This document shows positions 4,112 through 17,735 of a stretch of 32,000 nt of DNA, one piece after another (within the stretch, counting starts at the first letter, position 1; every line of letters starts with the position of its first letter). The position numbers and the translations under genes were made by a program. The notes beneath the pieces were generated by a model, which had not been told where the DNA came from, searched no databases, and was given only the letters and a program-made list of their open reading frames with translations. Source of the stretch: Pyrodictium delaneyi (GTDB taxonomy: Archaea; Thermoproteota; Thermoprotei_A; Sulfolobales; Pyrodictiaceae); NCBI RefSeq assembly GCF_001412615.1, contig NZ_CP013011.1, positions 1,590,001-1,622,000 of the forward strand, read 5' to 3'.

Positions 4112-4561
4112 CTACTCTCCGGCATAAAACCGAACATCGTTCCTATAGTACGAGCAGTATCCTGTCGCTGTACACGCCTCAACGAAGACTAGCTGCAAGT
4201 CATGACTAGTGCTGGCTAGTTTTGATAGCTTAGAGTCTAGACATTTGTACACTTCACGTACTAGCAGCTCCGCTGTAGCATCCTTGACGCCTAAGACTTC
4301 ATTTAAGTAGACATGATCAAGACTCCTCACACACTCGCCCAAAAACCTCTCGAGTACATAATGGTCTATGACAGTGTTGTCGGCACCCAACGGACCCTCG
4401 ACGCAAACACGCACTCTATAGTCGTGCCCATGAAGCGCGGCTGCCGAGCCACCGAGGCTCTCGACACGGAGTGCAGCCGAGATCCAGACCGATACACAGA
4501 CGCCGAACGGCATCATGCATCCCTTTCCTCCCTTGTCACTATGCCCCCGCCCTGAAGCCAC
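4112..4561 (-). CDS. 6-pyruvoyl-tetrahydropterin synthase / QueD-family (6-carboxytetrahydropterin synthase-like) protein
   Basis: LHGHDYRVRV matches the PTPS/QueD HGH-x-Y motif, and LDHVYLNE plus ATAELLV match the family's LDH..LN and pT.E.la motifs. The real start is probably the ATG-ATG at 4516/4513 (MMPFGV...), because the first 15 codons (MASGRGHSDKGGKGC) are low complexity. Confidence 0.75.
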   Translation of the reverse strand: MASGRGHSDKGGKGCMMPFGVCVSVWISAALRVESLGGSAAALHGHDYRVRVCVEGPLGADNTVIDHYVLERFLGECVRSLDHVYLNEVLGVKDATAELLVREVYKCLDSKLSKLASTSHDLQLVFVEACTATGYCSYYRNDVRFYAGE

Positions 4562-4661: not shown

Positions 4662-5153
4662 ATGGCGCTTCCTGGAATATATGCCGCTGCATCGCTACTA
4701 ACCAGCATAGTCCCTGACCAGATACAACCTGCAGGTATAGATCTACGTATAGGAGAGATACATGTTTTTCAAGAGCATGGATTCCTAGGTGTTAGGGGAC
4801 GCAAGATACCTACCTCGAAGCCCTTAGAGCCGGAGGGCGACAAGTGGCTGCTCAAGCCAGGCTACTACAAGATAGTCTTTATGGATGCTATTGCTATACC
4901 TAGTAATGCTGTAGGGATGTGTTTTCCCCGTAGCAGTCTTCTACGTATGGGAGTTATGCTGGGTTGCGCTGTATGGGATCCCGGCTATCGCGGCAGAGGA
5001 GAAGCACTGCTAATAGTCGGGAATCCCCATGGAGTAGAGATAGAAGTTGGCGCTAGGGTAGCACAGCTAGTGTTTATACGGGTTTACCCACAGCTTGGTG
5101 AGAGATATAGCGGTATCTATCAGGGTGAGAGACTAGCGGGAGAGAAGATCTAA
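4662..5153 (+). CDS. dut: dUTP diphosphatase (archaeal dCTP deaminase/dUTPase family)
   Basis: The 163-aa product carries IQPAGIDLRIGE, PRSSLLRMGV, DPGYRGRGEALL and ARVAQLVF, which are typical of the trimeric dCD/DUT family. Its short length fits the dUTPase form. Confidence 0.85.
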   Translation: MALPGIYAAASLLTSIVPDQIQPAGIDLRIGEIHVFQEHGFLGVRGRKIPTSKPLEPEGDKWLLKPGYYKIVFMDAIAIPSNAVGMCFPRSSLLRMGVMLGCAVWDPGYRGRGEALLIVGNPHGVEIEVGARVAQLVFIRVYPQLGERYSGIYQGERLAGEKI

Positions 5154-7259
5154 CACCGTCTCAAAGAATTTCCGTTCACTGCTCTTCTTGGACTTTTTCA
5201 GCAGCTTGGTTACAATCAGCTCGGGTGTCGATCGTGCAAGGTAGTTGTAGCGTGGGCTCCGGTCCACTATAAGGTTGTAGTTCTCGTCTAACCCCTTGGC
5301 CTCTATACCGTCTATCCTTACTTGCCCGCGGATAGCTGGAGGCAGCGCTTCGACAACTTCCTCGGCCAGGTGACTAACTATAACCGCCACCGAGTCCTTG
5401 CTCCTAGCTATAGATGCTGCTATCGCCGCTACTATGCGTGCAGCAGCATGTGCTTCTGTAATCGCCTCTAGCTCGTCTACTAGGAGTAGTATGCGCTTCC
5501 TCTGCGCCTCTTCCACTATAGCTGCCAGCTTCCGTAGCGTCTCCTCTAGGCCTCCGGCGTCCAGCATGCCAGTCGGCTTAGAGATGTAGTAGACCTTGTC
5601 AAAGCCGCCTACCCAGGCCCTGGACGCTGGAACCGGGAGCCCGGCCTGGCTTGCGAGCACTATTTCGCCTATGGTCTTCAACAATGTTGTTTTGCCGCCA
5701 CTATTGGCGCCGGTGAGTAGTATGACTCTCTCACACTGTGTACCTTCCGGCCTATAGGGGGTACATCCAGCCACGTAGCTTACGCGCTGAACCCTAACAC
5801 CTGCTGACAAAAGATTGGCCTCGACAGCCTCTATGAAGCCTACTCCGCTAAAGCTACGGCTAACCTCCGCTATGCAACCACGCTTCTCCACTATGAAGCG
5901 GTGGGCCGCTTGTGCTACATCGAGCCAAGCTAGTATCTCGGCAGCCGATGGTAGAAGTTCAACGAGCTGGCTAAGCCGGGCAGCATATTTTCTCGCGAAG
6001 AGGTAGAGGCTGAGGCCAATCTTCTGCTCTAGGTGTTGGCGCAACTTCTCAATAGGTTCTCGGCGCACTTCTATGGGGAACTGCGGCTTGGGCTCTACGA
6101 CTCCTCTTATGAACTCTCGCTCCTCGGGTTTTAGTCCCAGCATTTCTGCAAGCCTGTTCTCCGCTTCTATGCTCACCTCTTCGAATATCTCGACTAGCTC
6201 GTCTGGGATACGGAAGTAGCCCTCCTCGAGTGCTTGTATTAGGCGCAGGAGTTCTGCGGCGCTTAGTCGTAGCTCGCGTTCCTCGAGGCGGCGTTTAGCC
6301 TCCTCGTTTATCCAGACTTCGAGGTCAGACACTGCAGGTTCTAGGTTCTTTAGGACGAATGAGGCATACTTGTATTCTGGGTCTATCTCGCCCAGCTCGA
6401 GGCGTCTAAGCACCTCTAGGGCTTCCCGGGCCAATGCCACGATCTCGTCCACTATTCCTGGCTGCTTGCCCAAAGCCTCTGCAACACTTACGAGCAGACC
6501 AGGGTTCATCTCATAGATGTTTATAAACGCTTCTATGACTCCCTTGTTCTGCCTAAGGGTCTCGATTACAAGCTCCGGGGCAACAGTGTACATGTCTAGC
6601 TTGTCTATCCCGACTACACCTGGTTTATCAGGCACGTCAACTCTATAAGCTAGAATTATAGCTGAGCTATGCACATCCACATCGTCTAGCGAGTTAGCCT
6701 CTATGATTGTGAGCCCCTCCACCCTGTTGCCAAGCTTGTCCCGGAGCTTCTCGGCGTAGTCCCTTGGGGCTACTACTACACGGTTTACCTTGACTCTCGG
6801 CTTCCGTGGCCACGTTATACGGGAAAGATTCCCGTACAGCCTGGGCCATGTAATCCTGGCTGTGGCTGTTGCATCTACTAGCCTCTTCATTCTGCGCGAC
6901 ACAGCCTCTACTTCTGCCTCGAAGCGGCCAGGGACTGGCGCCAAAGTTGCAACTAGGTCTTTACCCGGCTCCGATACAACACTCTCGATAAACAGCTTTG
7001 TCACAGCCTCAAAGAGCCCGGCTGTGTCCGGAGAGCCTATCACCTCGCCGGGGTCGTACCCTGCTAGTGCTCCGCGAGCTAGTCGCACCAGCCTTACAGC
7101 TCTACGGGTCGATGACAAGGCTTCAGCTATGCTTGCTACCTGTCCCTGCAGCAGTGCTCTTAGCGCCTCCTCCTCGGAGCCAAAGTAGCCTACAAGTTTC
7201 TCGTAGACACGCTCGCCTACACCTGGTATGCCGCGCAGCCGGAGCTGCGTCCTACCCAT
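5133..7259 (-). CDS. MutS-family ATPase without a mismatch-binding or Smr domain (archaeal MutS5/MutS2-like), N-terminal helix-hairpin-helix
   Basis: The C-terminal ABC ATPase has Walker A LLTGANSGGKTTLLK, Walker B ILLLVDELEAITE and a MutS-like SH motif (VIVSHLAEE). The N-terminus LRGIPGVGERVYEKLVGYFGSEEEA is HhH-like. The long middle region is helical and E/R/L-rich. Its 3' end overlaps the dut 3' end by 21 nt (convergent). Confidence 0.85.
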   Translation of the reverse strand: MGRTQLRLRGIPGVGERVYEKLVGYFGSEEEALRALLQGQVASIAEALSSTRRAVRLVRLARGALAGYDPGEVIGSPDTAGLFEAVTKLFIESVVSEPGKDLVATLAPVPGRFEAEVEAVSRRMKRLVDATATARITWPRLYGNLSRITWPRKPRVKVNRVVVAPRDYAEKLRDKLGNRVEGLTIIEANSLDDVDVHSSAIILAYRVDVPDKPGVVGIDKLDMYTVAPELVIETLRQNKGVIEAFINIYEMNPGLLVSVAEALGKQPGIVDEIVALAREALEVLRRLELGEIDPEYKYASFVLKNLEPAVSDLEVWINEEAKRRLEERELRLSAAELLRLIQALEEGYFRIPDELVEIFEEVSIEAENRLAEMLGLKPEEREFIRGVVEPKPQFPIEVRREPIEKLRQHLEQKIGLSLYLFARKYAARLSQLVELLPSAAEILAWLDVAQAAHRFIVEKRGCIAEVSRSFSGVGFIEAVEANLLSAGVRVQRVSYVAGCTPYRPEGTQCERVILLTGANSGGKTTLLKTIGEIVLASQAGLPVPASRAWVGGFDKVYYISKPTGMLDAGGLEETLRKLAAIVEEAQRKRILLLVDELEAITEAHAAARIVAAIAASIARSKDSVAVIVSHLAEEVVEALPPAIRGQVRIDGIEAKGLDENYNLIVDRSPRYNYLARSTPELIVTKLLKKSKKSSERKFFETVLDLLSR

Positions 7260-11410: not shown

Positions 11411-11863
11411 ATGTATAGAAAGACAGAGTTTAGTCATCTCGTAGAAGGAACAATAGTGATAATCGACCTTGATAGGTTCAGTGAAGTTGTAGAGGAGAGG
11501 GGATGGAGCGAATACAGCCCAAACCCGGCTACAGGGCTTCTAACAAGACTCATAGAGATGTTTGCAAGGAGATGGCAAGGTGTCATTATCTACGGCTTCG
11601 ACGAAGAACGTGGCACCGAGGAAGTAGTTATAGAGATACCGCTAGTTGAACCCGAAGAACTTCTACCGGATCTAGAGAAGATAAAACAAGAGCTAAACAG
11701 TATCGGAGTTGGAATCACCATCGTAGCCCTTAAGGGGTATGTGCTTGGCAAACCTGCCGCAGATAGAAGGGAAGCCTATACAGCTACACCATTTAGGCGT
11801 AGAGCTCTAGCACTTCTAAGAAAGGCTAAACGCCGTGGAGGCAACACGGTGATTATAGCCTAG
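11411..11863 (+). CDS. Minimal GGDEF-like / nucleotidyl-cyclase palm-domain protein (150 aa)
   Basis: IVIIDLDRFSEVV resembles the GGDEF hhhDlDhFKxxND strand. YGFDEERGTEEVVIEIP sits at the GGDEF-hairpin position. The C-terminal ALALLRKAKRRGGNTVI resembles ALYxAKxxGRNxV. The order and spacing fit a single palm domain with no sensor domain. The assignment rests on motifs only. Confidence 0.55.
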   Translation: MYRKTEFSHLVEGTIVIIDLDRFSEVVEERGWSEYSPNPATGLLTRLIEMFARRWQGVIIYGFDEERGTEEVVIEIPLVEPEELLPDLEKIKQELNSIGVGITIVALKGYVLGKPAADRREAYTATPFRRRALALLRKAKRRGGNTVIIA

Positions 11864-11948: not shown

Positions 11949-13151
11949 TTATGCCTCCTCCACCGTGGTATAGTTTAGCGCTGTATAACTTGGCACACGT
12001 TCCACAGTTTTAACCTCAACGTAGCTGCTACTCTCCGCACTTGGCAGCTTAGCAACTCCTAGGAGCCCTGCAAGCTTAGCTTCAAGCTCATCCGGGGGTA
12101 GCTTCTTCAAAGCCCTTGCAGCTTCATAGAGCTTCGCGAAGGGTTTGCTCGTTCCCCGGTATGTAGCGCCATTACTTGCGACTTCGAGAAGTATCCACGC
12201 GTTGAATAAAGCTCGTGCTTCAAAACTGTTAACAAGACTTTCATGTGTCACGTTAAACAAGCTAGAAGCTTTCTTGACAAATTCCCGATAGATGTCTACC
12301 TCGTTTTCACGCAATGTTGCTGGACCGAAGCGTACTTTTTGTCCACTTATATGGCGTTCACCGAGCCCTGGGACTATTATCTTACCAAAGGCCGCCTTAT
12401 GTCGCCAGGTTTGCGTATCACCGCTATCTATACCAATTATCTTTAAGAGAGGTATCACTGCTGCAGAAGCGAGGCCAAGGGCATGAAGCTTGCCACGCCA
12501 CAACTTACGTAGAAGAGTGAGAAATAGGACTGCCTTGAGCCGCGAACCTTTACCCGATCTTTGCATGAAATGTGGTATCAAACCGCCAACGGCAGCAATA
12601 CACGAGTGCGGCTCATAACTGCGTAGCTGTAGTCGCAGCGACTCGCCTACAGCCATATGGAATACGGGAATTAGTCTTCCTTCCTCTACGAGACCTCGTA
12701 GCGTATTCTTAAGCGACATATAGCTGGATATTGTTCTTGCTATCTTCCGTGCTCTGGTCTCATTATCGTCAAGTGGGCCTGGAGGATAATCCAGGCTTAT
12801 ATAATAGTCTGCATCAACTTCCCTGTAAACCTTTGCTATTTTATAAGTACCCGGATCGATACCTCGTCTAAGAAACTGGTAACCACCACTGTCGATCCAC
12901 AATTCTACGTCATCATTATCTATTCCGAGTAACTTGCGAAGACCCCTCCCACGTACACGACTTAAACCAACCCTTAGTATATCGTAAGCGTTAACCATTA
13001 TCCCAGATACTGGGAGGGTAAGCCATGGATGAGGGACCGCGTTTATAGGCGTTCCTAGAATCAGTTTGAATCCGCCCATGGTAGTGCGCCAAGTGTTAGG
13101 TATTATCAACCACGATGATAGACTAAAGGTATTATCCACAGGAACGAACAT
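11949..13151 (-). CDS. tRNA-guanine transglycosylase (TGT) superfamily catalytic-domain protein without Zn site or PUA domain (ArcS/DpdA-like)
   Basis: Motifs are colinear with remembered archaeal ArcTGT. WIDSGGYQFL matches EVDSGSFQL (catalytic Asp). ISLDYPPGP matches FLDIPTPP. AAVGGLIPHF matches PIGGVVPLL. LHALGLAS...IGIDSGDTQTW matches HLFGAGHP...GVDLFDSASY (second catalytic Asp). No CxCxxC...H zinc motif follows, and the protein ends about 130 aa later without C1/C2/PUA domains. An alternative start is MGGFKL at 13079. Confidence 0.65.
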   Translation of the reverse strand: MFVPVDNTFSLSSWLIIPNTWRTTMGGFKLILGTPINAVPHPWLTLPVSGIMVNAYDILRVGLSRVRGRGLRKLLGIDNDDVELWIDSGGYQFLRRGIDPGTYKIAKVYREVDADYYISLDYPPGPLDDNETRARKIARTISSYMSLKNTLRGLVEEGRLIPVFHMAVGESLRLQLRSYEPHSCIAAVGGLIPHFMQRSGKGSRLKAVLFLTLLRKLWRGKLHALGLASAAVIPLLKIIGIDSGDTQTWRHKAAFGKIIVPGLGERHISGQKVRFGPATLRENEVDIYREFVKKASSLFNVTHESLVNSFEARALFNAWILLEVASNGATYRGTSKPFAKLYEAARALKKLPPDELEAKLAGLLGVAKLPSAESSSYVEVKTVERVPSYTALNYTTVEEA

Positions 13152-13549
13152 TGATATAATAAACCCGAGTTAAAGCATACAACTATAAGTCTTCATCTAG
13201 AGGACATAGCTGTGGGGATGAAGAGGCTCGAAAGGGCAGAGACCCGGCAATAGTGCCGGGTCAACCTATGAAGAGCCGCGCAGCACAGACCCTCCTACGA
13301 ATGCCAATTATTAGACACTTTTACTCACTCCTTAAGCTACACTTAGGAAGCAACTATTGATGAATAATACATTAGAGAACTCAGGTACATGCCGAAGAAT
13401 CCTAGCCTCGAGTGAATCCTATTCTTATTAGCCGCCTACTATGAGACTAATATAATGTGTATGTATGGATGATGACGTTACGCACTCTTAGAGCCCTTTC
13501 CATTCCATAGCTTTCGAGAAAGTCTACAAGGGCGATGAAAGAGGCCACC

Positions 13550-13972
13550 TCACTGACACTCAATTACACATTCGTAGGATGAGTCTTTACATTCTACCCT
13601 AGCTATGACCTCGCCTTTCTCTCCATTCATAATACTCAACCTGGCTGTACCACAGCCTAGCTCCTTAACGACCAGTACATTGCCCAATCTGTTGTCTCGT
13701 TGCTCCTCAAGTACCACATTCCTCAATCCCGCCCCACTATATAATGCGTATATATCCATAGCCAATAGTCTAATGGTGTGGATCATTCTGGCTTTGTCTT
13801 CTCTACATAGCCTCAATCCTATGGATTTACAAGATATTCTCAGCAACGTCTCTATGGGAGAATCATAAGGATCTATATCCGTAGCTCTTCCTGTATTTGC
13901 AGCAGACAATGCTCCTTGCACTGTGACAGCCCTAACACGGGCCAAGCTCGTTTCCACCCTACTTTGGCTCAT
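13550..13972 (-). CDS. Hypothetical protein (140 aa) with C-terminal C-x6-C-x3-C, translationally coupled to the radical-SAM gene
   Basis: Its start overlaps the stop of the upstream radical-SAM gene by 14 nt on the same strand. The C-terminus is ARVECKDSSYECVIECQ. I recognise no family. Confidence 0.55.
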   Translation of the reverse strand: MSQSRVETSLARVRAVTVQGALSAANTGRATDIDPYDSPIETLLRISCKSIGLRLCREDKARMIHTIRLLAMDIYALYSGAGLRNVVLEEQRDNRLGNVLVVKELGCGTARLSIMNGEKGEVIARVECKDSSYECVIECQ

Positions 13973-14726
13973 AGTAGAACCTAGGCTTTAACCCTAGAAG
14001 TTTTAGTCTACGCTTAGCAGGTGAATAGAGTACCAGAGGCTCTACTTCTATGTTCTCAACTATATCGGGTCCTGCAAGCTCAACTAGCTCCTCGATCAAC
14101 TGTGCCCAACACTTCTCAGAACCAAATGCCGCAAACAAAGCTACATGGAAGCTTAGGCCATAGTCGGCTAGATGTTTTACGGCATTAAGGGGGTACTCGA
14201 AAGCTCTAGGCATAGCACCCGTCAGTTTCGTGAATAATTCTGGACTACACGCTTTTATAGAAATACGGACATGTAGTCTATTATACCTGGCTAGGGTTCT
14301 AGCATACTCGCGCCGGGCCCCAATAAGTATACCATTGGTCTCTAGTATGAAGAGCCTATCACTAGTAGACTCAAAATGATCTAATAGTTTTACTAGATGT
14401 TTGAACCCTATAGTTGGCTCGCCTCCTGAAAGCCTCACATATCTATAACCATGAGCCTTGGCTATGCTCTCAAGTCTCTTATAGGCCTCCAGGGGGTGTA
14501 CAAAGAATCCTATCCTGAGATCATCGCGTGGTCTCCCTGTCCAACAAAATGCACAGCGCAGATTACATCCAACTACATCACCCACCGCGCTTCCGCCATA
14601 GAAGCGGCTCCCACGGAAACGATAGTACTTGCGACGAGTACCTTGGAGGACACGCTGCTCTATTAGATCAGCTAGCTTAACTGGGTCAAAACCCCTTATC
14701 TCCGCCTCTTTACTCATCTCAGACAC
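13959..14726 (-). CDS. Radical SAM enzyme (small NrdG/PflA/QueE/RaSEA-like activase-type fold)
   Basis: CNLRCAFCW is the CxxxCxxC cluster motif, VRLSGGEPT is the SAM-binding GGE motif, and ILETNG follows. There is no SPASM or twitch Cys cluster in the C-terminal half. The start is GTG at 14726 or ATG at 14717. Confidence 0.85.
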   Translation of the reverse strand: MSEMSKEAEIRGFDPVKLADLIEQRVLQGTRRKYYRFRGSRFYGGSAVGDVVGCNLRCAFCWTGRPRDDLRIGFFVHPLEAYKRLESIAKAHGYRYVRLSGGEPTIGFKHLVKLLDHFESTSDRLFILETNGILIGARREYARTLARYNRLHVRISIKACSPELFTKLTGAMPRAFEYPLNAVKHLADYGLSFHVALFAAFGSEKCWAQLIEELVELAGPDIVENIEVEPLVLYSPAKRRLKLLGLKPRFYYEPK

Positions 14727-16728: not shown

Positions 16729-17298
16729 ATGGGCATAGACAAGGAAAAGATTGAACATGCTGTAAGACTAATCCTTGAGGCCATCGGGGAAGACCCAGAC
16801 AGAGAAGGTCTTAGGGATACGCCGAGACGTGTAGCAGAGATGTTCGAGGAGATCCTCGCGGGGTACAAGGATAGCGAAGAGTATACATGGTTCACCGAGA
16901 CTAGCGATCTCGTTGTAGTCTCTGGTATAAGGTTCTATAGCTTATGTGAACACCATATACTACCATTCTTCGGTGTCGCACATGTAGCCTATCTACCAAG
17001 GGGCCGGGTCATAGGACTATCGAAGATCGTGCGCATAGTTAACAAGTACGCGAGAAGGCTACAGATACAGGAACGTATGACACAGCAGATAGCCGAGGAG
17101 GTTTCACGCGCAACTGGTTCGCCAGACGTTATGGTGGTGACAGAGGCTGTACACCTTTGCATGGCAATGAGGGGTGTGAGGACGCCAGCACCGACCGTGG
17201 TTGCAGCTGTTCGTGGCGCATTTGCGACACGGAGCAGCCTTAAGGACGAGGTCTACAGAATTATAGAGCCTCACAGGTTCCGGGGCTTTCCACTTTGA
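16729..17298 (+). CDS. folE: GTP cyclohydrolase I (FolE type IA)
   Basis: Motifs present are [49 protein letters not shown] and RLQIQERMT. The minus-strand ORF 16632-16895 is a shadow. Confidence 0.95.
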
Positions 17299-17735
17299 GT
17301 TCCACGCACTACTTCATATAATGCAATTGCGAGCGAAGCCGCAACATTATAGCTCATCCCTTGTACGACTGTGGGTATTTTTGCCACAGCTTTGGGCTCC
17401 GGTATAGCTTCTACTACGTGTTGTGGTATACCGTAATCCTCAGCACCTATCACGACTACTATTCTTTCATGGCTAAACTCTACTTCATGCAGATACTTTG
17501 TACCATATGTCTCTAATACTACATACATTGCTTCACCTATAGCATTGACAGTTTCTTCCATACTCTGGACTATGTGTAGTCTTGTACGTGCTTTTTGCTG
17601 AAGCATTTCAAGCTTATAGTCTACGCCAGGCCGGGGTATAACGTAGAGGTCAGCCCTGATAGATGCAGCCAGAGCCGCCACGTCATGGAGGTTTTGGGGG
17701 TTCTTGGGATGGTAGAAGATAACGTTGACCTTCAC
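17271..17735 (-). CDS. SPOUT-superfamily (SpoU/TrmH-TrmL-like) RNA 2'-O-methyltransferase
   Basis: The ~154-aa product carries [11 protein letters not shown] and [23 protein letters not shown] (SpoU motifs 2 and 3). The start is GTG at 17735. Its 3' end overlaps the folE 3' end by 28 nt (convergent). Confidence 0.8.

Follow-up and report, generated by a model that had tools for sequence, protein, structure and literature searches.

The window analysed in this study is a 32,000-nucleotide stretch of the Pyrodictium delaneyi genome (contig NZ_CP013011.1, positions 1,590,001 to 1,622,000), and the gene of interest lies in a minus-strand open reading frame (ORF) of 400 amino acids at 11949-13151, which contains every sequence block on which a first-pass annotation had based its proposal of a transglycosylase core. 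The encoded protein was confirmed to be a member of the tRNA-guanine transglycosylase (TGT) superfamily (PF01702 fold, (beta/alpha)8 barrel). Sequence comparison and modelling place it in the zinc-less, lid-less and PUA-less "viral-type DpdA" branch of that superfamily, and we see even chances that it is a DpdA-type enzyme which would exchange guanine for 7-cyano-7-deazaguanine (preQ0) or 7-carboxy-7-deazaguanine (CDG) in DNA. This type of protein is already known from the architecture of viral DpdA; the widespread, conserved chromosomal family in hyperthermophilic archaea to which the window protein belongs appears to be undescribed within the literature searched, in which no account was found of a DpdA-type gene conserved on the chromosomes of archaeal cells. 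In the Pyrodictiaceae, the family member is solitary and lies in a housekeeping context. Residue numbers throughout refer to the 400-residue ORF, also where the probable 376-residue product is meant. The coding sequence is as follows:

11949..13079, minus strand: coding sequence of a DpdA-like TGT-fold transglycosylase, from the ORF, the starts of homologs, the fold and family membership.

The assignment to the TGT fold draws its significance from profile and structure searches. A single-sequence Pfam search with the window protein gave no match even at E<=10, the gathering score of the Pfam TGT model not being reached, and a single-sequence comparison with solved structures found no TGT. A profile of 28 homologs, by contrast, matched the archaeosine tRNA-guanine transglycosylase (ArcTGT) of Pyrococcus horikoshii (1IQ8) at E=3.6e-10 over residues 48-256. 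The AlphaFold model built from the 28-homolog alignment was confident (predicted local distance difference test, pLDDT, 84.5; predicted template modelling score, pTM, 0.82), and in Foldseek it retrieved ArcTGT at 5.5e-12 and bacterial and human TGTs at about 1e-10, with a probability of 1.0 for all. ArcTGT is 16% identical to the window protein. The proposal that a TGT catalytic core is retained was thus upheld, and the similarity to the TGT fold, which had been named as a point to be checked, was significant by profile and by structure but not by single-sequence Pfam search.

Conservation of the active site was assessed in an alignment of 88 members of the zinc-less family, within which identity to the window protein falls to about 31%. 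The residues D87, S88, G89, G90, D121, P123, P162, H165, G189, H223, G226 and D245 were invariant in all 88 sequences. In hidden Markov model (HMM) alignments, D87 was placed opposite Asp95, D121 opposite Asp130, and D245 opposite Asp249 of ArcTGT and Asp256 of DpdA. The earlier statement that both catalytic aspartates are present holds for D87 and for the nucleophile; the nucleophile, however, is D245, the second Asp of GIDSGDT, and not D242, the first, which is variable (Asp in 57 of 88 sequences only). Residue for residue, D87, Y91, D121, H165 and D245 match Asp95, Phe99, Asp130, His181 and Asp256 of the bacterial DpdA structure 7UI4, after correction for the 20-residue tag offset of that chain (His181 is residue 201 of the tagged chain). 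In bacterial DpdA, Asp130 and His181 read the base, Phe99 and Leu236 stack, and Asp95 and Asp256 form the catalytic pair (PMC10164549). Moreover, the H165 position holds His in 88 of 88 family members, in four of four viral proteins and in six of six proteins of a sister group, and Gln in three of three aligned ArcTGT sequences (Gln169, within NATIQ or PVQGG). A conserved His here (the His196/His181 position) has been cited as a DpdA feature by Hutinet et al. (PMC6884629). The base pocket is hydrophobic and of the preQ0 type, with no Glu235-type switch. The active-site features are as follows:

12876..12893, minus strand: DSGGYQ motif, with D87 as putative general acid/base (equivalent to Asp95) and Y91 as putative base-stacking aromatic (equivalent to Phe99), from HMM alignment with 1IQ8 and 7UI4.
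12789..12791, minus strand: D121 of LDYPP, the predicted base-recognising Asp (equivalent to Asp130).
12657..12659, minus strand: H165 of PVFH (equivalent to DpdA His181 and ArcTGT Gln169).
12573..12587, minus strand: GGLIP pocket strand (equivalent to ArcTGT GGVVP and DpdA GGMVP by alignment).
12414..12428, minus strand: DSGDT motif, with the predicted nucleophile D245 at 12417-12419, by alignment.

Because every catalytic or base-contacting residue is invariant across very divergent sequences, the prediction of an active base-exchange enzyme is well supported, and the same invariance points to selection on catalysis.

The absence of the zinc site and of the RNA-binding domains, which had been read from the letters alone, was borne out. 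The mature protein has a single cysteine, C184, the segment RHKAAFGKIIVPGLGERHISGQKVRFGP is free of Cys, and downstream of the nucleophile the frequency of Cys in the family is at most 2%. Where the sister group carries the zinc-binding pattern CxCPxC...RAxHNA, the family reads KKA-SSL...RALFNA, the zinc His ligand being replaced by F316 in the window protein and by F, V or I across the zinc-less family. A Cys-free segment of the same type is also present in the DpdA proteins of STSV2 and MiCath, and the loss of zinc is a trait common to the viral-type DpdA clade and not peculiar to the window protein. No N-terminal lid, C1, C2 or PUA domain was found in the window protein by alignment, model or Pfam. 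The helical C-terminus that had been described extends to about residue 364 in the AlphaFold model and is followed by a disordered tail. The corresponding features are as follows:

12321..12404, minus strand: Cys-free segment RHKAAFGKIIVPGLGERHISGQKVRFGP, a beta-hairpin after the nucleophile with conserved basic residues R250, K252 and K257, from model and alignment.
12204..12275, minus strand: remnant of the zinc subdomain, with KKASSLF for CxCPxC and F316 for His, by comparison with sister proteins P0205, P0209 and P0226.
11952..12047, minus strand: disordered and poorly conserved C-terminal tail, residues 369-400, with pLDDT <50 and a variable alignment.

The first-pass annotation had taken the missing tRNA-recognition module as a pointer to a substrate other than tRNA. 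This argument does not stand by itself. Since the ArcTGT of Thermoplasma acidophilum has no zinc motif and a PUA-deleted ArcTGT stays active (PMC4770233), the lack of zinc and PUA alone is no evidence for a non-tRNA substrate.

The suggested link to DpdA was substantiated: the nearest relatives are viral DpdA proteins and not ArcTGT, and they share the active-site His. STSV2_15 aligned by BLASTP over 273 amino acids with 30% identity (E=5e-37), through the Cys-free segment to the RSLVNAW helix. Similarly, gp62 of Pseudomonas phage MiCath aligned over 260 amino acids with 24% identity (E=3e-11) and is likewise Cys-free after the nucleophile; it is annotated as a queuine tRNA-ribosyltransferase, the label DpdA being given here by homology to the phage 9g/CAjan type, and its neighbours are QueE, QueC, QueD, FolE and DNA polymerase genes. 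A tblastn search of phage and archaeal-virus genomes returned matches in 70 records, including STSV1/STSV2 (9e-29), SIRV rudiviruses (about 1e-9) and Pseudomonas phages (about 1e-4), and PHROG 887 was matched at 3.5e-10. The best structural match in BFVD was a "queuine tRNA-ribosyltransferase" of rudivirus SBRV1 (E=1.4e-15, TM 0.80), which ranked above any solved TGT. These viral matches are the DpdA homologs of Hutinet et al., who reported that DpdA is essential for 7-deazaguanine in phage DNA (PMC6884629). Furthermore, STSV2 encodes only DpdA and ArcS2, a protein with the core of archaeosine synthase (ArcS), and its DNA contains dCDG at 149 per 10^6 nucleotides (PMC10516641). A crenarchaeal-type ArcTGT fragment aligned over 92 N-terminal residues only (E=2e-5), and the sole match among curated models was to the ArcTGT model TIGR00432.

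Database searches returned 59 homologs, all from hyperthermophilic Thermoproteota, including Pyrodictium occultum (79% identity), Pyrofollis, Hyperthermus and Pyrolobus. A scan of 185,579 species, with one genome per species, gave 110 relatives, the best match being a metagenome-assembled genome (MAG) of Pyrodictium delaneyi (84%). The relatives occur in the Pyrodictiaceae, in other Desulfurococcales (Ignicoccus pacificus, Ignisphaera, Thermodiscus and Acidilobaceae), in the Thermoproteales (Pyrobaculum oguniense, Pyrobaculum sp. WP30, Vulcanisaeta, Caldivirga, Thermoproteus and Thermocladium) and, in small numbers, in Njordarchaeota, Aenigmatarchaeota, Bathyarchaeia and Nitrososphaerota. An exhaustive profile search yielded 1214 cluster representatives at E<=1e-3 and 122 at E<=1e-30. 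The Pyrodictiaceae clade is considered cellular because a scan of IMG/VR found only distant rudivirus-like relatives (23-27% identity). In a rough neighbour-joining tree, the viral proteins nest among cellular Desulfurococcales sequences, and the DUF5591-linked homologs of loci L010, L032 and L033 are closest to the Pyrodictiaceae clade. Some members are labelled 7-cyano-7-deazaguanine tRNA-ribosyltransferase by JGI. The Pyrobaculum sp. MAG 21I_056.bin.4 carries three family copies on three contigs (L051, L054 and L066), which suggests duplication or mobile copies.

Neighbouring ORFs were clustered across 80 loci of these relatives. A gene for DUF5591, the catalytic core of ArcS, is tightly adjacent in at least nine loci and also in STSV2; its identity is based on matches to the NCBIfam archaeosine synthase alpha model (1e-16 to 1e-20) and on the PC..KPY motif. 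A gene for a HerA-like ATPase, which matches Pfam DUF87 at 6e-35 and the PADLOC HerA model at 8.7e-49, is adjacent in about 20 loci, mostly of Vulcanisaeta, Caldivirga and Thermoproteaceae, and both partners are present in three loci. Moreover, locus L007 is a defence-like island with PLD nuclease, NurA, HerA and Mrr_N genes, and in some relatives an Nre gene lies near the TGT-like gene. The idea of a separately encoded partner, raised earlier, agrees with the pairings in relatives, but no such partner adjoins the gene in the window. No canonical ArcTGT was found in any fetched flank. A query with the catalytic fragment of P. horikoshii ArcTGT returned short or partial TgtA proteins only, none of them from Pyrodictiaceae, and the matches were apparently limited by length. 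A search for stand-alone DUF5591 in Pyrodictiaceae gave only three matches.

Several other patterns were noted in these loci. In Vulcanisaeta (L045, L047, L060 and L080), the HerA-like gene just upstream is broken up into two or three ORFs, next to an intact TGT-like gene; the broken genes are either pseudogenes or assembly frameshifts. In 11 Pyrobaculum/Thermoproteus loci, an ABC-type ATPase gene lies about 40 nucleotides from the TGT-like gene (for example L040, 3515-4390), and nine Pyrobaculum/Thermoproteus loci have a Trm112-like zinc-ribbon ORF at a distance of about 0.9 kb (for example L052, 7252-7671). These neighbours could reflect synteny or a link to transport or salvage.

If the enzyme is a DpdA, D87 would protonate the leaving guanine, by homology to TGT and DpdA, and D245 would attack C1', giving a covalent intermediate between the enzyme and the nucleic acid. 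A 7-deazaguanine from the host pathway (preQ0, possibly CDG), sandwiched by Y91 and L191 and recognised by D121 and H165, would then attack C1' and complete the exchange. The most likely substrate would be DNA, in which case the protein would be an archaeal DpdA encoded on the chromosome. A base inserted in this way may, in related lineages, be processed further by the adjacent ArcS-core (DUF5591) protein, or the reaction may alternatively be aided by the adjacent HerA-like DNA ATPase, and the Pyrodictiaceae enzyme would act without an adjacent partner. DNA is favoured because the protein is closest to viral DpdAs over its full length, carries the His signature and has neither a lid nor RNA-binding domains, and because HerA-like DNA ATPases and ArcS2-type proteins occur as its partners in relatives, phage ArcS2 together with DpdA2 yielding deoxyarchaeosine (dG+) in DNA (PMC10516641). 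The basic nature of the protein (51 Lys and Arg versus 37 Asp and Glu) and the FolE gene 3.6 kb away were counted as further points for DNA.

A number of observations weigh against a DNA substrate. The preference for DNA in cellular members of the family derives from homology and gene context, and an ArcS-core partner would fit the synthesis of archaeosine in tRNA equally well. The family profile fits the solved structure of ArcTGT better than that of bacterial DpdA, giving only E=0.021 against 7UI4. In addition, no HerA, DUF5591, nuclease or restriction partner was found in the fetched Pyrodictiaceae flanks, and PADLOC finds nothing. The gene sits in a conserved housekeeping synteny in this family, and the family tree largely tracks taxonomy, a pattern more typical of housekeeping RNA-modification genes than of defence genes. 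A gene for a SpoU-class RNA methyltransferase lies within 1-4 kb in two differing gene arrangements.

These points lend themselves to a possible, although not probable, alternative, namely that the protein is an RNA-guanine transglycosylase. It could be a minimal, non-orthologous ArcTGT that places preQ0 at tRNA position 15, archaeosine being finished by DUF5591, QueF-L or GAT-QueC, or it could serve a further 7-deazaguanine site in tRNA or in rRNA. Such an enzyme would suit a core, vertically inherited chromosomal gene of Pyrodictiaceae and Thermoproteales, and the partner that recurs among relatives is the catalytic core of the tRNA enzyme ArcS. ArcTGT activity, moreover, needs neither PUA nor zinc (PMC4770233), ArcTGT is the best profile match among solved structures, some members are named tRNA-ribosyltransferase by JGI, and a SpoU-type methylase gene is near in both arrangements. 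However, the TIGR00432 score was 21.5 bits against a cutoff of 350, His stands where ArcTGT has Gln, and the ArcTGT fragment aligns over 92 residues only, whereas viral DpdA aligns at full length. The HerA-like DNA ATPase partners and the defence-island context in relatives also count against an RNA enzyme, as do the three copies in one Pyrobaculum MAG. Furthermore, arcTGT homologs have been reported in all Archaea that bear archaeosine (G+) (PMC5485725), so the gene would be a second TGT-family gene in its host.

Base exchange could also serve other ends, for example a direct repair of DNA in extreme heat, in which damaged purines are swapped out, or 7-deazapurine salvage with free nucleotides or nucleosides as substrates. 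We regard this as unlikely. It would agree with a housekeeping-type gene in organisms that grow at 100 C or above, with the HerA, NurA and Nre genes near some relatives, with the ABC-type ATPase gene in the Pyrobaculum and Thermoproteus loci and with the ability of TGT enzymes to swap guanine for guanine (PMC11298593). Yet repair or salvage is without precedent in the superfamily, the pairing with DUF5591 points to the nitrile-bearing preQ0 as substrate, the pocket residues are readers of guanine and 7-deazaguanine, and the neighbourhood hints are weak and possibly plain synteny. Finally, the highly divergent sequence with no Pfam match and the loss of the TGT zinc subdomain, which mediates dimerisation, might recall a catalytically dead structural or regulatory subunit like eukaryotic QTRT2; the invariance of the catalytic and base-binding residues in 88 sequences down to about 31% identity makes this highly improbable.

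Returning to the DpdA-type reading, a bolder form of it can be considered, in which a 7-deazaguanine (preQ0, CDG or G+) would be a housekeeping mark on the chromosomes of the Pyrodictiaceae and many Thermoproteales, inherited vertically and made by a solitary virus-type DpdA without a restriction partner. In a variant, the enzyme would carry out direct base-exchange repair. In either case, crenarchaeal viruses would have taken DpdA from this ancient cellular lineage. We hold this scenario to be tentative and rather doubtful. If it is true, chromosomal 7-deazaguanine could protect the N7 of guanine, or its glycosidic bond, at temperatures of 100 C or above, or could shield the DNA against viral or host nucleases.

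The window is syntenic with the Hyperthermus butylicus chromosome, which argues for a chromosomal Pyrodictiaceae locus. The neighbours conserved in the Pyrodictiaceae are a radical-SAM gene with an overlapping 140-residue ORF, an ARMT1-like phosphatase, a pyrophosphatase, FolE and the SpoU-type methylase. The context differs in Pyrolobus, where the SpoU-type methylase was the only one of these neighbours found nearby. These short SpoU-class genes, at 17271-17735 on the minus strand in the window and at L002 9959-10417 in Pyrolobus, encode proteins that are 42% identical, and their proximity could be chance or a weak hint of a link to RNA modification. The neighbouring features relevant to 7-deazaguanine chemistry or to local synteny are as follows:

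13550..14726, minus strand: radical-SAM gene (13959-14726) overlapping the 140-residue ORF (13550-13972), syntenic within Pyrodictiaceae only; context, with a putative link to the TGT-like gene.
16729..17298, plus strand: GTP cyclohydrolase I (FolE), the first step to 7-deazaguanines (Pfam 6.4e-67, NCBIfam 1.2e-69); given as context only.
4112-4561, minus strand: PTPS/QueD-family (COG0720) protein with AxxxHGH for the QueD CxxxHGH, 7.4 kb from the TGT-like gene.

FolE is the only firm 7-deazaguanine-pathway gene in the window. It is of type IA, and most archaea use FolE2 or MptA instead, according to reviews. Because the PTPS-family protein is without the QueD signature Cys, it should not be assumed to be the 6-carboxytetrahydropterin (CPH4) synthase of the preQ0 pathway. 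The radical-SAM protein (255 residues, cluster motif CNLRCAFCW) has a 14-nucleotide gene overlap with the Cys-rich 140-residue ORF, and the pair lies upstream of the TGT-like gene in 12 Pyrodictiaceae loci. It matched no curated radical-SAM family above threshold, and none of the QueE or archaeosine-synthase models. QueE and RaSEA, the ArcS partner, were considered as identities and found no support, since the matches were weak and generic (MoaA best at 50 bits, QueE at about 1e-5 or weaker). A QGEG-type motif is usual at the N-terminus of QueE, and it was not seen in this protein. The window radical-SAM gene is also unrelated to the radical-SAM gene beside the L010 homolog. A 150-residue ORF at 11411-11863 on the plus strand, convergent with the TGT-like gene, occurs in 10 Pyrodictiaceae loci, has no Pfam match and ends in RRGGNTVIIA; neither this ORF nor the 140-residue ORF showed similarity to ArcS2, of which they had been considered diverged forms. 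Farther away, a 708-residue protein (5133-7259, minus strand) matches only MutS domain V and an AAA domain, lies beside a dCTP deaminase-like gene and may be an archaeal MutS-like ATPase.

The gene model itself deserves comment. Most homologs begin at the residue that matches M25 (MGGFKLILGT) in the homolog alignment, and a TATA-like GATAATA lies 22-28 nucleotides upstream of ATG 13079; for these two reasons the true start is probably this ATG, which would give a protein of 376 amino acids (11949-13079), the first 24 ORF codons probably being untranslated. The direct repeat and promoter-like stretch that precede ATG 13079 explain the spurious 24-codon extension. The upstream features are as follows:

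13080..13151, minus strand: in-frame upstream extension of the ORF, probably promoter and not coding, its 24 residues being absent from most homologs.
13101-13107, minus strand: TATA-like GATAATA inside the upstream extension, from sequence.
13098-13110 and 13127-13139, minus strand: two copies of the direct repeat GTKGATAATACCT, just upstream of ATG 13079.

The copies of GTKGATAATACCT are 29 nucleotides apart, and the TATA-like box is part of the proximal copy; the repeat region could be a promoter or a regulator-binding site. Moreover, a perfect 9-bp GC-rich hairpin with a 4-nucleotide loop (GACCCGGCA/TGCCGGGTC, 13241-13262), which has no Rfam match, sits within the 400-bp gap that separates the 140-residue ORF from the TGT-like gene and may be a terminator-like element dividing two transcription units. 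Rfam and tRNA scans of the 32-kb window gave no matches. A frameshift that hides a zinc site or PUA domain had been mentioned as a possibility. The TGT-like gene shows no sign of one, since more than 80 orthologs share its end point and no PUA-like sequence comes after it; no PUA remnant or fragment was found downstream, and the next downstream ORF is on the opposite strand.

So far, DNA with 7-deazaguanines has been described for phages, for archaeal viruses and in connection with bacterial Dpd defence islands. If DNA is modified by the family described here, some of the most heat-tolerant organisms known would carry a hypermodified genomic base, which would bear on DNA stability at extreme heat, on virus-host conflict in the Crenarchaeota and on the origin of viral DpdA genes. 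If RNA is modified, the protein would be a non-orthologous replacement of ArcTGT or the enzyme of an undiscovered 7-deazaguanine site. The modification may concern the archaeal cell's own DNA or, alternatively, RNA at a place other than the usual tRNA site. In addition, current Pfam and PADLOC models miss the whole zinc-less clade as such, although the Pfam TGT model does match some of its members, unlike the window protein.

Compared with named systems, the window protein shares with ArcTGT (1IQ8) the catalytic fold, the equivalents of Asp95, Asp130 and Asp249 and a GGxxP pocket suited to preQ0. It differs in lacking the lid, the CCCH zinc site and the C1, C2 and PUA domains and in having His for Gln169, and identity as ArcTGT was rejected on this substitution, on the TIGR00432 score far below the cutoff and on the partial alignment. 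ArcS has a TGT-related N-terminal region and acts in the same pathway as ArcTGT, but its defining features, the DUF5591 C1 domain (PC-X3-KPY-X2-S-X2-H) and a PUA domain, are both missing here, and ArcS differs from ArcTGT at the Asp95/Ser96/Phe99 positions (PMC4770233). The window protein gave no match to PF17884, and a custom DUF5591 HMM found nothing in the window, so ArcS was rejected as an identity; the amino-acid transfer of the ArcS type that had been offered as an option is not supported, given the missing domain and motif and the retained transglycosylase aspartates.

Some Thermoproteales and other relatives resemble the HerA/FtsK and TGT modules of BREX-related capture (BRC) systems in pairing a TGT-like gene with a HerA-like ATPase, and the TGT module of BRC systems has recently been proposed to mark DNA (PMC12839542). 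As a difference from BRC systems, no PglZ, BrxC-like, STAND or DUF4007 genes were seen in the fetched flanks, and the window locus has no HerA. The bacterial DpdA of S. Montevideo (7UI4) has in common with the window protein the three Asp residues, the stacking aromatic and His181, and both are without the N-terminal lid and PUA. Bacterial DpdA carries a CXCX2CX22H zinc site and large insertions, requires DpdB and ATP, and its gene belongs to a dpd island (PMC10164549). The window protein has neither this zinc site nor the Ins8 helical domain, the PADLOC DpdA model does not match it, and no dpdB, dpdC or dpdD-K was found in the 32-kb window.

The phage DpdA family puts preQ0 into DNA (PMC6884629), and its representative MiCath gp62 shares with the window protein the Cys-free region after the nucleophile, the His and the RAxxNxW helix. 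Phage dpdA genes lie inside FolE-QueD-QueE-QueC clusters beside replication genes, whereas only FolE and the doubtful PTPS-family gene are found within 8 kb of the window gene. The architecture of the crenarchaeal-virus DpdAs (STSV2_15, STSV1 ORF18, SIRV2 gp13/ORF310 and SBRV1 gp19) is shared throughout: a TIM barrel with DSGG(Y/F)Q, LD.P, P.xH and xSxD(T/S) motifs, a Cys-free hairpin and a helical C-terminus, with no lid, zinc site or PUA. Those proteins are virus-encoded and 290-310 amino acids long, and the STSV2 copy is paired with ArcS2; the window gene, in contrast, is chromosomal and conserved, its product has a longer C-terminal tail, and no ArcS2 gene adjoins it. The nearest sister group in the exhaustive profile search, a large and metagenomic set of short TGTs (P0203-P0326; 350-400 amino acids) with His at the base-binding position and no PUA, keeps the N-terminal lid and the CxCPxC...RAxHNA zinc site; its matches to PF01702 reach 5e-29, and its match to the PADLOC DpdA model is at 3.9e-15. 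Since the His is shared and this zinc-bearing sister group matches the PADLOC DpdA model, the zinc-less clade, to which the window protein and the DpdAs of crenarchaeal viruses belong, appears to be a reduced branch that arose on the DpdA side of the superfamily.

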